Shown: piece by piece, positions 35,887 through 39,597 of the stretch | Layout of the letters: each line of letters starts with the position of its first letter | Numbering within the stretch: position 1 is the stretch's first letter | Assembly (NCBI GenBank): GCA_963664295.1 | Contig: OY760935.1 | Coordinates: 928,001 to 992,000, forward strand | Length of the DNA stretch: 64,000 nt | Origin: Candidatus Altimarinota bacterium | GTDB taxonomy: Bacteria; Patescibacteriota; Gracilibacteria; CAIRYL01; GCA-016699755 | Direction of reading: 5' to 3' | Position numbers and translations under genes: made by a program | Notes under the pieces: model-generated | Database searches by the model: none | What the model was told of the DNA's origin: nothing | Seen by the model: only the letters and a program-made list of their open reading frames with translations

Positions 35887-37278
35887 TTAATCTGCGCCCT
35901 TTCCACCAAGAACCACCCAAATAGTTTTAAAAATTATTTTAAGCTCCATAAGAATATGCCAATTTTGAATAAAATATAAATCTAGTTCTATTTCTTTTTG
36001 AAAAGACAAATTGCTCCTGCCCGAAACCTGTGCAAGCCCCGTAAGACCTGGACGAATGTTTAAAACTCTTGTTTCAGCAACAGAAAATTCTTTAATTTCT
36101 TCTGGCAAATGTGGCCTTGGTCCAGTCATAGACATATCACCCAATAACACATTGATTAACTGAGGAAGCTCATCCAAAGAAAATCTGCGCAAAAACTTGC
36201 CCACCTTAGTAATTCGAGGGTCATTTTTAATTTTAAACAAAGGCCCATCTTTGCGATGAGACAATTTAATTAAATCTTTTTTCTTTTTGTCTGCATTTTG
36301 CTCCATGGACCTAAACTTAATCATTGAAAACTTCTTACCTTTTTTGCCAACCCGCTTACTAACATAAAAAATAGACCCTTTGGACTCAAGCTTAATCGCA
36401 AAAATAATCAACAAAAAAACAGGAGAAAACAAAACAATTAAAAACAAAGAAAAAATAATATCAAAAAAGCGCTTAAAAACACGACTCCAGCCATCAAGCG
36501 CAGAAATTTTTGGCTGTAAAACCGGAATACCATTAAAAATTTCCATTTCCATGCTCGCAAAACGCATACCCAACTCCGAAGGGACAAAACGAAAATATAA
36601 ATGATTTTTTTCAGCAATCAATTGAGCTTCTTTCATTTTTTCAAAAGAAAAATTGCTCGAAGCATACCAAACCTCATCAAATTTTGCCTTAGAGGCAATA
36701 TTTTTAGCATAATTAAAGCTATGTTCTACAATTGCCTCTTTTAAAACAAAAGGCATGGTTTTTGACAAAGTTTTTTTCAAGCTCTCAAAAACACCGCCTT
36801 CACCAATAAGCAAAACTTTACGTGCATAGGATTTATTTTTCCATGCCAAGGAAAAAAGCCAACGCAAAAAAATTCGCAAAACAAAAATCAGCAACAAAGA
36901 GAAGAACATTGCCTGAAATAGCATAACACGGGAGAAAAAAGGCTCATGTCTAACTAAAGAAAAATAAGCCACGATCAGCATTCCCCACAAAAAAACCCCA
37001 AAAACAATTTTCAAAAATTCTTTAATAGGATCAAATTTTTCTACTAATGGATAAAAGCCCAACAAGAAAAACATTATCAACAAAAATCCAGCAGAAACAG
37101 CAACAAAAGGAATATAAAACTCCAAACTTGGCAAAGCTTCTTTTGGAAAATAAGTCTGCACACCAGGAATTAAATCCGTAATTGGCCTGAGCCAGTAAGT
37201 CAACGACCAAGCAGTAATAACAGCAAAAAAATCAAATGCTGTACGAAGCAGGCCGGCAATAATCTCCTTTCTCTGCAC
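35887..37278 (-). CDS. Polyprenyl-phosphate sugar phosphotransferase (WcaJ/CpsE-like)
   Basis: N-terminal TMs; KRFFD, KFRSM, DPRITKVG..LR..SLDELPQL.NV..G.MS..GPRP. Confidence 0.92.
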   Translation of the reverse strand: MQRKEIIAGLLRTAFDFFAVITAWSLTYWLRPITDLIPGVQTYFPKEALPSLEFYIPFVAVSAGFLLIMFFLLGFYPLVEKFDPIKEFLKIVFGVFLWGMLIVAYFSLVRHEPFFSRVMLFQAMFFSLLLIFVLRIFLRWLFSLAWKNKSYARKVLLIGEGGVFESLKKTLSKTMPFVLKEAIVEHSFNYAKNIASKAKFDEVWYASSNFSFEKMKEAQLIAEKNHLYFRFVPSELGMRFASMEMEIFNGIPVLQPKISALDGWSRVFKRFFDIIFSLFLIVLFSPVFLLIIFAIKLESKGSIFYVSKRVGKKGKKFSMIKFRSMEQNADKKKKDLIKLSHRKDGPLFKIKNDPRITKVGKFLRRFSLDELPQLINVLLGDMSMTGPRPHLPEEIKEFSVAETRVLNIRPGLTGLAQVSGRSNLSFQKEIELDLYFIQNWHILMELKIIFKTIWVVLGGKGAD

Positions 37279-37408: not shown

Positions 37409-37483
37409 GGCCAGGTAGCTCAGTGGTAGAGCAATGGACTGAAAATCCATGTGTCGGCAGTTCAATTCTGCCCCTGGCCACCA
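37409..37483 (+). tRNA. tRNA-Phe(GAA)
   Basis: GGCCAGGTAGCTCAGTGGTAGAGCAATGGACTGAAAATCCATGTGTCGGCAGTTCAATTCTGCCCCTGGCCACCA. Confidence 0.96.
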
Positions 37484-37653
37484 TTTTTGGTGTTTATTGC
37501 TCTACGCAATGGACTGGCTAATTGTAAATGGCCATGTGTCGGCAGTTCAATTCTGCCCCTGGCCACCATTTTTGGTGTTTATTGCTCTACGCAATGGACT
37601 GGCTAATTGTAAATGGCCATGTGTCGGCAGTTCAATTCTGCCCCTGGCCACCA
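37484..37653 (+). repeat. Two identical 85-bp tandem units containing the 3' part of tRNA-Phe with a replaced anticodon loop
   Basis: 37484-37568 = 37569-37653; each ends CCATGTGTCGGCAGTTCAATTCTGCCCCTGGCCACCA. Confidence 0.92.
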
Positions 37654-38001
37654 TTCGCTTAGTGAGAATTACGACCCGCAACGGAGCGACCGAGTGAATA
37701 ACGAGGGCGCGGAGTGGAGGGGAAATTATTTGTAATAAAATCGTGATCTTTTACACACAGTAAAAGTCGATTTTTTAAAAATAATTTAGTAATTTCCTAA
37801 GTGATTATTTATTCAGAACAAACCCATAAAATTGATACAAAGCACTAAAGCATGGAACCCTTGGTGTTCTTTGGGCTGAATGAATTGTCCGACACACTAC
37901 AATAAAGAGTCGGCAATAAGTAGTAAGGAAATTATCTTATTTTCTTTTAAAAAACTTTGATATAAAATTATATAAAATAACTTAATCTTTTTAGCCTTTC
38001 C

Positions 38002-39597
38002 ATGAAAAAATGTCTTACTTCTTCTAGCGCATTTGTTGTTGCTCTTTTAATGGTTTTTGGGCTTACCACAAGCACAAATGATTGTCAAAGCTATGCCCAA
38101 GATGAATGTGTATTTACTGATGTTTGTGATCATAAATATAAAGATGCTATTCAATATGTAAAAGAGCAAGGAATAATAGGGGGCTATAAAGACGGTAGCT
38201 ATAAACCTGATAAAGAAATAAATCGCGCAGAATTTACAAAAATTATAATGGCTTCATCTTTTTCAGAAGAATCAATAACAGGAAGCTACTGTTTTACTGA
38301 TGTAAACAACGAATGGTTTGCTCAATATATATGCTCTGCAAAGAATGAGGGCATTATTAACGGATATTCAGATGGTAGCTTTAGGCCGAACAATCTGGTT
38401 AATCTTGTAGAGGCATTAAAAATTATCTGGGAGGCAACAGGAGTTGATATTCCAGAGGCAGAGGGAGAATGGTACCAAAAATATTTTGACGCATCAGATC
38501 AGGTGGGTCTTTTGGATACTATTGGCAGAGATCCATCTCACTTACTTACTCGTGGTGAAATGGCAGAAATTGTCTATATATCAAAAACATTGGAAGATGA
38601 CACAGATAACAACAATTCAACTACAACAAACATAACTGATAACAATACAACAACCACTAATACGGAATTGCCACCGCCATTTGTGACAGAATCAGGGGGA
38701 GTGAATATTGCTTGGACAGATTTACAATATCATCTTTTTTACAATGGTGAAGACATGGGTCATGGTGCTACACCAAAATTATCAGACGGAAATTTAGCTT
38801 ATTTAAGGCCACAAGGTAATGGCACAACTTGTTATTATTATGATACATGTGATGTAATTTTAAATGAGGAAAATCTTGGTGAAGGAGCAAGCATTTCTTT
38901 ATCAGGAGACAACATTGCTTTCCATCGTGACATGGGTGATAACGATTTTCATGTTTTTTACAATGGCGAAGACTTGGGCAAGGGTACTAATCCTGTATTA
39001 TCCGGTGATAACATTGCTTATTTTGATGAAAATCGAAACATTATTTACAATGGTACAAACTTAGGAAAAGGTGAAAGCTATATGCTTTCTGGCGATTTGC
39101 TTGTTTATTCATATTACGACTCAAATGAATCACAAAGGTATATTTATGTAAATGGCAAAAAAGTTGATAAGGTAGCAAATTTTGCAGTAGGTGGAGGAAG
39201 TTACATTTATACCAATATGAATGAAAATAATCTTTATAATGTGTTTGTAAACGGCGAATTGGCTGGAGAGGCAAATTATTCTACTGAGATTTCAGTTGAC
39301 GGTGATAATTACGCTTTTGTAAAACGTGTGGATTCTGAAACGCATGTTGTTTACAACGGAAACGATATGGGTAAGGGCACAAAACCAGTAGTAGATGGTG
39401 ATGATTTTGCCTATACCAATGACGAAGATGATGTTGCTATTTTTAATGGTGAAGAGGTGAGTAATTGCTATGCGGTCAAAATTACCAATGGTAATAGTGT
39501 TTGTAATGCACGACCTACTTCAAACCCAGCAATGCATGTCTATCTGAACAATGAAGATGTTGGCGTGGGACAAAGTTTTTATGTTGAGAGTGAGTAA
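38002..39597 (+). CDS. Secreted SLH-domain protein with C-terminal YNG.D.G.G beta repeats
   Basis: Signal peptide; SLH motifs (GYKDGSYKPDKEINRAE, GYSDGSFRPNN, LTRGEMAE); Thr/Asn linker; repeated YNGEDLGKG-like units. Confidence 0.82.
   Translation: MKKCLTSSSAFVVALLMVFGLTTSTNDCQSYAQDECVFTDVCDHKYKDAIQYVKEQGIIGGYKDGSYKPDKEINRAEFTKIIMASSFSEESITGSYCFTDVNNEWFAQYICSAKNEGIINGYSDGSFRPNNLVNLVEALKIIWEATGVDIPEAEGEWYQKYFDASDQVGLLDTIGRDPSHLLTRGEMAEIVYISKTLEDDTDNNNSTTTNITDNNTTTTNTELPPPFVTESGGVNIAWTDLQYHLFYNGEDMGHGATPKLSDGNLAYLRPQGNGTTCYYYDTCDVILNEENLGEGASISLSGDNIAFHRDMGDNDFHVFYNGEDLGKGTNPVLSGDNIAYFDENRNIIYNGTNLGKGESYMLSGDLLVYSYYDSNESQRYIYVNGKKVDKVANFAVGGGSYIYTNMNENNLYNVFVNGELAGEANYSTEISVDGDNYAFVKRVDSETHVVYNGNDMGKGTKPVVDGDDFAYTNDEDDVAIFNGEEVSNCYAVKITNGNSVCNARPTSNPAMHVYLNNEDVGVGQSFYVESE

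Follow-up and report, generated by a model that had tools for sequence, protein, structure and literature searches.

Doubled tRNA-Phe fragments in a Candidatus Altimarinota genome: a candidate relic of a tRNA-lodged GIY-YIG nuclease cassette

Directly 3′ of the tRNA-Phe gene of a Candidatus Altimarinota bacterium, two identical 85-bp units composed of altered parts of this tRNA were identified (37484-37568 and 37569-37653). The window, i.e. the whole stretch of 64,000 nucleotides analysed (contig OY760935.1, positions 928,001 to 992,000), belongs to a complete genome of 1.215 Mb with 33.5% G+C. The two units, which the original prediction had claimed, were borne out by the sequence itself, ARAGORN and TRF (period 85, 2.5 copies, 100% identity). 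With a probability of roughly 0.55, they are relics, gene-less and later doubled, of cassettes from a family that encodes a small GIY-YIG nuclease and lodges at tRNA genes. Debris of such a cassette is the most likely explanation for the locus, and the earlier idea of a scar left by a tRNA-targeting element fits both the pattern of tRNA fragments across the genome and the GIY-YIG cassettes. The locus points to a pairing of an 82-aa nuclease gene with tRNA genes in Patescibacteria, Bacteroidota, Acidobacteriota and other phyla, which would account for broken tRNA copies that confuse annotation in many small genomes. The array comprises the following features (window coordinates):

37409-37483, + strand: intact tRNA-Phe(GAA) gene (ARAGORN; RF00005, 75.6 bits)
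37479-37492, + strand: weak terminator-like hairpin, 5 bp followed by a T-rich stretch, in which the CCA end is paired with the lead of unit 1
37484-37568, + strand: unit 1, 85 bp (sequence, TRF)
37484-37505, + strand: lead of unit 1, antisense to tRNA-Phe positions 18-37 (D-loop to anticodon loop)
37506-37516, + strand: sense copy of tRNA-Phe positions 23-33 in unit 1
37517-37531, + strand: 15-nt insert of unit 1 in place of tRNA-Phe positions 34-38 (anticodon loop)
37532-37568, + strand: exact copy of tRNA-Phe positions 39-75 in unit 1 (T arm, 3′ acceptor strand, CCA)
37569-37653, + strand: unit 2, identical to unit 1 (sequence, TRF, contig depth)
37569-37590, 37591-37601, 37602-37616 and 37617-37653, + strand: lead, sense copy, insert and 3′ copy of unit 2
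37657-37807, + strand: dispersed non-coding repeat after the final CCA of the array

According to ARAGORN, the tRNA-Phe at 37409-37483 is the only one of the genome. Each unit consists of a 22-nt lead followed by tRNA positions 23-33, the 15-nt insert and positions 39-75 with the CCA end. The 3′ part of the unit 1 lead pairs with the sense piece downstream (hairpin 37492-37514), and the insert forms a second hairpin (37515-37534); a search of the genome detected no copy of the insert outside units 1 and 2. The terminator-like hairpin recurs at 37564-37577, both occurrences being consensus matches only (2 found vs 0.7 expected). The dispersed repeat shares 95% identity with the stretch that follows the last tRNA-Gly(TCC) copy and, over 79 nt, 94% with the one that follows a tRNA-Lys(CTT) copy. 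Genes for a sugar transferase and an SLH protein flank the array; neither among them nor at the locus itself was a nuclease gene found, and an 82-codon ORF spanning the array (37449-37697) had no Pfam match. The former gene (35887-37278) encodes a WcaJ/WbaP-type polyprenyl sugar-phosphate transferase and is transcribed away from tRNA-Phe, the latter (38002-39597) a 531-aa SLH-domain protein whose C-terminal half contains internal repeats. A promoter-like site on the minus strand of each unit was dismissed, as such sites occur at chance level (3 found vs 2.2 expected).

An assembly artefact, which the original prediction had itself considered, is next to impossible. It is true that no listed contig spans the array and that the two runs used for depth estimates come from one sample, which is possibly the source of the assembly. 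However, a 115-nt unitig of the repeat reached depths of 17.5 and 40.5 in these runs, compared to 8.6 and 20 for the contig at the junction. The ratio is 2.0 in both runs, and this doubled depth supports the presence of two units. Besides, collapsing of tRNA reads cannot yield the altered sequence of the units. Two seawater runs of low depth lack coverage of the unique part of the unit, which at such depth does not speak against it. As far as the contigs tell, the array is real.

In one relative (G005), tRNA-Phe, a GIY-YIG-like ORF and an altered tRNA-Phe copy were found together, and the genome was therefore searched for PF01541. It contains the following feature:

Genome 482683-483373: two identical 321-bp units upstream of tRNA-Pro(TGG) (L040)

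In each of these units, an intact 82-aa GIY-YIG ORF accompanies a 5′ tRNA copy that has a GC-rich palindrome in place of its anticodon arm. A decayed third 5′ tRNA copy is located upstream of them. A complete cassette, of which this genome has an example at tRNA-Pro and relatives have examples at tRNA-Phe, is made up of an altered tRNA copy, the 82-aa GIY-YIG gene and an intact tRNA. The nearest solved sequences of the 82-aa protein are UPF0213 proteins, while a match in PHROGs was not obtained. Its nuclease activity is predicted from sequence. Among 88 homologous loci fetched, one had no tblastn hit. Of the 87 loci counted, 72 possess a tRNA within 500 bp, 71 of these on the same strand, and if only loci with full flanks are considered, 57 of 63 are tRNA-linked. 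The linked homologs cover many isotypes and phyla. By contrast, no tRNA lies within 500 bp of any of 29 loci of an Ssn-like control clade consisting of homologs of the genome's other small GIY-YIG protein. The tRNA-linked and the control set are separated by a branch with an SH-aLRT value of 97, obtained by a quick tree search on 115 rows and 83 columns in which SsnA itself is not included. The tRNA-linked protein shows 35% identity to the genome's SRM-flanked protein, and a crude motif (GTCAY plus hairpin) was detected at 5/87 loci of the tRNA-linked set vs 12/29 control loci.

In the flanks of the cassettes, the D, anticodon or T regions of the tRNA copies are replaced by hairpins of 11-30 nt. 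Two of the homologous loci (L053, L109) are tRNA-Phe cassettes. GC-rich palindromes are present at 59 of the 87 cassette loci, and the same palindrome occurs inside a gene-less unit behind tRNA-Arg(GCG) in this genome. Units bearing the gene measure approximately 300-380 bp, short units are devoid of it. The geometry of the Phe unit (unit 85, copy from position 23, lead 22) is nearly reproduced by gene-less units of relatives at tRNA-Thr (L279; 76, 23, 20), tRNA-Pro (L044; 78, 22, 20) and tRNA-Met (L303; 86, 26, 29). Judged by features that were defined from the loci studied here, a published definition not having been found, the Phe locus has in common with the cassettes that an intact tRNA is accompanied by a truncated copy of the same tRNA on the same strand and that a loop of this copy (positions 34-38) is replaced by a short hairpin. 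It contains neither the GC-rich palindrome typical of the clade nor, inside the unit, the GIY-YIG gene present at tRNA-Pro. Since this gene is missing, the Phe unit is only a gene-less derivative and not a full member. Its insert is AT-rich, unlike the GC-rich palindromes of the clade, and this difference is a weak point of the relic interpretation. Searches of open-access listings and abstracts brought up no account of small GIY-YIG cassettes lodged in tRNA genes, nor of units like these, and a term search of 10.64898/2026.09.22.753630 gave no mention of GIY. The cassette is thus apparently undescribed.

According to the main text of Chenal et al. 2025 (PMC11893778), Ssn proteins are single-domain GIY-YIG nucleases acting on ssDNA and associated with NTS/SRM hairpin repeats; SsnA cuts ssDNA beside its own hairpin repeat, but not dsDNA or RNA. 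The cassettes resemble the Ssn system in their small stand-alone GIY-YIG gene, their own flanking hairpin repeats, the gene-less repeats across the genome and the origin from a mobile element that has been proposed (PMC11893778, main text). The strand-specific cutting of ssDNA next to a hairpin that we presume for the cassettes is chemistry borrowed from Ssn as described there. However, tRNA is mentioned 0 times in the main text of that paper, the tRNA-linked proteins branch apart from the genome's SRM-flanked protein and its homologs, and the Phe unit has neither an SRM nor a gene. A second relevant enzyme is SegB, which PMC13096335 portrays as a free-standing GIY-YIG homing endonuclease of phages, whose gene is co-located with tRNA genes of many isotypes. 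According to this paper, SegB cleaves within tRNA genes and brings about the head-to-tail amplification of a unit that contains tRNAs. Whereas SegB, as presented there, is phage-encoded and amplifies intact tRNA genes for dose, the cassettes are chromosomal and the copies crippled. By its sequence features, the cassette would work like Ssn and SegB and is, on the tests run, probably a member of neither. REP/RAYT elements (PMC3733652, accessible text) also bring short palindromes to many sites by means of a dedicated small nuclease and have non-autonomous copies. In contrast to them, the targets here are tRNA loops, and the complete genome contains no Y1 transposase. A footprint of an IS110 bridge-RNA element or a retroelement was rejected, as neither IS110 (PF02371) nor reverse transcriptase (PF00078) gave a match in the complete genome. 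Apart from one tyrosine recombinase far from any tRNA, no competing mobiliser was detected, which favours the relic interpretation. Downstream of E. coli tyrT, short tandem repeats are located whose units carry the 3′ end of the tRNA. To our knowledge, these repeats show no loop replacement, antisense arm or link to a nuclease.

Presumably, the GIY-YIG nuclease introduces nicks or cuts in the loops of tRNA genes, most likely where single-stranded DNA forms hairpins, as the related Ssn enzymes do. Repair against a neighbouring copy would then result in one intact tRNA and a spare with an overwritten loop, and template switching at the break would create short inverted copies. Thereafter, the nuclease gene may have been lost, or the enzyme may be supplied in trans by the tRNA-Pro locus. 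A recent doubling, the units being still identical, would have followed through slippage or unequal recombination involving the 37-bp direct repeats.

The Phe locus had originally been treated as a single case. The feature is real, and about 20 such features exist in the genome. Copied fragments of 12 nt or more lie within 500 nt of 20 of the 37 tRNA genes, compared to 15 of 6668 random 1-kb windows. The copies are situated 5′, 3′ or on both sides of the tRNAs, many of them as perfect tandem arrays (80-321 bp). In six relatives, fragment copies were found at 38 of 191 tRNA loci, ranging from 1/33 to 11/33 per genome, the census being based on the 30 best of 35-42 tRNA matches in each genome and on their neighbours. 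Conservation of the Phe unit itself, which had been proposed as a check, was not found, the exact unit being absent from 27 tRNA-Phe loci of relatives; two further loci gave no tRNA-Phe call. BLAST searches with the unit in 40 relatives matched parts of tRNAs only, and pattern scans yielded one match in 400 genomes of the phylum, which is not at a tRNA, 0 matches in a viral collection and two in a metagenome collection, neither of them at a tRNA. Because the exact unit was found neither in relatives nor in the collections, its descent is untraceable.

These data bear on a rather unlikely alternative, namely an ordinary local rearrangement at a highly transcribed, hairpin-rich tRNA gene without a dedicated nuclease, in which errors of replication or repair would create an inverted and a direct partial copy that is afterwards doubled by slippage as a minisatellite. 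It would suit the identical and lineage-specific Phe units, the insert lacking the cassette palindrome and the perfect tandem units at non-tRNA sites of the genome; as such units exist away from tRNAs, doubling needs no tRNA-specific enzyme. Left unexplained by it are the 20/37 affected tRNA genes, the breaks in loops with hairpin inserts, the scaffolds common to trailers of different tRNAs and the 72/87 tRNA linkage of the GIY-YIG clade. Near-perfect tandem units away from tRNAs were observed at genome positions 360772-361200 (154 bp) and 508226-508522 (121 bp). The former appears to include the start of a protein gene (MSGHSKW), which we take to be YebC-like.

The leads of the Phe units deserve particular attention. 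As had been predicted, ATTGCTCTAC in the lead is the exact reverse complement of tRNA-Phe positions 18-27, but the reach of the antisense stretch had been understated, as it extends beyond these 10 nt. Positions 18-31 are complemented over 14 nt if two G-U-type changes are allowed and, judged by eye, the whole 22-nt lead agrees with the complement of positions 18-37 apart from four changes of this type and an insertion of 2 nt. When the duplex of lead and tRNA-Phe was tested, 5 of 5000 shuffled leads were as good. Among 37 partners, tRNA-Phe was the best, ahead of tRNA-Val by just 0.1 kcal/mol, and 87 of 4033 other 22-mers from trailers pair as well as the lead.

For 9 of 38 tRNA/tmRNA genes in the genome, compared to about 1 expected, the 130 nt downstream give the gene's own RNA the top rank at a score of at least 11, with a scorer that treats all transitions alike and with two Lys loci that are not independent. 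These arms are located behind Met, Ala, two Lys, Met, Pro, Val, Ser(GCT) and tmRNA; the Phe trailer ranks its own tRNA second. Seven tRNAs and the tmRNA share a trailer layout of a long hairpin, the arm, a TAAT-containing loop and a short sense copy (Met 13634, Ala 119286, Lys 136190 and 557369, Met 419414, Pro 482635, Val 1131679, tmRNA 748048), to which most add a hairpin insert and a copy of the 3′ end. The arms of these loci have a length of 15-22 nt, are antisense to the variable region and T arm of the cognate tRNA and reach past the local sense copy into tRNA loops. From locus to locus they follow the cognate sequence, partly by construction as the arms were hand-picked. Some arms agree at their T-loop end with the SegB motif RAWTSGAAC given in PMC13096335, because the arm is a complement of the T loop. 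Three similar antisense arms were found in one relative (G003), whereas four others have one scoring arm each, which may be chance, and G006 has none.

Antisense arms are atypical of the cassettes, which is another weak point in deriving the Phe units from them. No enrichment was detected at 136 tRNA loci of the GIY-YIG and tRNA-Phe sets, where the cognate ranked first in 7/132 downstream and 4/133 upstream sequences with 3.6 expected. The only cassette locus found with such an arm is a tRNA-Phe cassette with a GIY-YIG gene from Bacteroidota (L109:1384-1834), in which one sense and one antisense version of the anticodon arm make up the trailer hairpin. At another locus (L061), a 26-nt perfect inverted copy of tRNA-Asn positions 12-37 was noticed on the opposite strand approximately 425 nt behind this tRNA, beyond the GIY-YIG gene.

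For the specialist, the cognate-specific arms are the oddest part of the system. It is doubtful that an arm serves as a programmed guide, pairing with the gene or the transcript of its own tRNA to direct a nuclease acting in trans, or an insertion, to the loops of this tRNA. There is a small chance that each tRNA gene is accompanied by a reprogrammed non-coding element, whose arm lies in a hairpin with its loop exposed, pairs with the cognate tRNA gene and guides the 82-residue GIY-YIG protein supplied in trans from tRNA-Pro. The 9/38 trailers ranking their own RNA first, the layout shared by seven tRNAs and the tmRNA while the arms track the cognate, their extension past the sense copy into tRNA loops and the three arms of G003 argue for such a guide. 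Changes in the arms also lean to top-strand G-U pairs (14/114 vs 3/67), but with unbiased windows this tendency falls short of significance (p = 0.066); such windows are preferred to hand-trimmed arms, which gave a biased result (11/98 vs 0/47, p = 0.011). On the other hand, the arms are not enriched at GIY-YIG loci elsewhere, and the Phe lead distinguishes its tRNA from tRNA-Val by 0.1 kcal/mol only, with 87/4033 trailer 22-mers being equal. A DNA search of 300 other genomes of the class with the scaffold of the Ser(GCT) trailer returned only three weak matches of 24-30 nt. Moreover, SsnA, as described in the main text of PMC11893778, acts without a separate guide and shows no RNA binding. 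If the arms guide the enzyme, they would represent a new programmable system, nucleic-acid-guided, mobile and homing to tRNAs, with an effector among the smallest known. If they do not, they would be a record of how nicks in tRNA loops get repaired.

Folding of tRNA-Phe together with most of unit 1 resulted in the native cloverleaf, three abutting hairpins and the T arm (z = -4.2; 0 of 200 shuffles equal), and the hairpins named in the original prediction fold as it described. This structure ending in CCA, which is better than that of shuffles, and the ability of the lead to pair with the CCA end or the anticodon loop would be in line with a functional RNA, i.e. a tRNA-like decoy, an alternative 3′ half or a switch for the maturation of tRNA-Phe. 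Such a function is nonetheless decidedly improbable. The units would make no working tRNA, and any transcript of them would be a read-through past the weak terminator. Within one unit, the acceptor stem comprises 4 bp only. A scan with Rfam gave nothing above the gathering score in the units, only RF00005 on the intact tRNA passing, and no conservation was found in relatives. A decoy for anticodon nucleases, as had been suggested, is unlikely because the unit destroys precisely the anticodon loop of tRNA-Phe. The insert, whose hairpin has a local fold of -6.3 kcal/mol, had been likened to the anticodon hairpin of tRNA-Tyr. It shares only the 7-mer TGTAAAT with this tRNA, the stems are different, and matches of this kind to some anticodon arm occurred in 460 of 3000 shufflings of the insert and in 618 of 3000 15-mers drawn at random from the genome (15-21% of controls). 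A mimic or chimera of tRNA-Tyr was therefore rejected, as the match is no better than chance. Equilibrium folds of growing transcripts revealed that the native cloverleaf is dominant up to 150 nt and lost at 160 nt, where the 5′ acceptor strand of tRNA-Phe swaps to the copy. The pairing postulated for an alternative 3′ half thus occurs, yet it was equally obtained with 30 of 30 controls in which the middle was shuffled, so that the swap shows no design and was discarded as a designed function. In all of 14 units tested, shuffled controls behaved alike. The natural tRNA-Ala sequence is an exception, showing no acceptor swap.

A displaced 3′ tRNA fragment starting beside the anticodon loop is the usual pattern of att sites. 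It speaks for the attachment-site scar of an integrase element with crossover in the anticodon loop and later decay, which we consider very improbable for the Phe array. Repeats at att sites are unaltered copies that flank kilobases of cargo, while the loop is overwritten here; fragments on the 5′ side are also common, more than half of the tRNA genes are affected, and the single tyrosine recombinase of the genome (1158017-1158550) is encoded approximately 24 kb from the nearest tRNA. With an altered loop and neither an integrase nor an island nearby, membership in this class was rejected. Partial tRNA genes derived from integrative elements are characterized, in the accessible text of 10.1101/2022.07.05.498093, by a whole and a partial tRNA copy in direct orientation. 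The Phe array differs from them by the lack of cargo and integrase, the overwritten loop, the inverted pieces, the tandem arrangement and the genome-wide occurrence. Debris of a tRNA-lodged nuclease cassette stays the preferred reading.

Some further arrangements were observed in this genome. Tandem arrays of tRNA fragments with units of 80-118 bp are present at five tRNAs (genome coordinates):

1034864-1035273: array at tRNA-His
559202-559476: array at tRNA-Glu
419472-419738: array at tRNA-Met
591555-591794: array at tRNA-Tyr
97000-97492: array at tRNA-Leu

The tRNA-His array has 5.1 copies of a unit with 9 nt exactly antisense to its own anticodon loop. The trailers of tRNA-Gly, Ser, Arg(GCG) and Gln (e.g. 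L133) have a second scaffold of approximately 170-190 bp in common, in which a conserved hairpin insert lies in the T loop of a tRNA copy. A 95-aa GIY-YIG gene at genome positions 622557-622841 (L041) is flanked by hairpin repeats tagged with GTCATT and is likely a true member of the Ssn family. Repeats related to these hairpins form arrays elsewhere in the genome.
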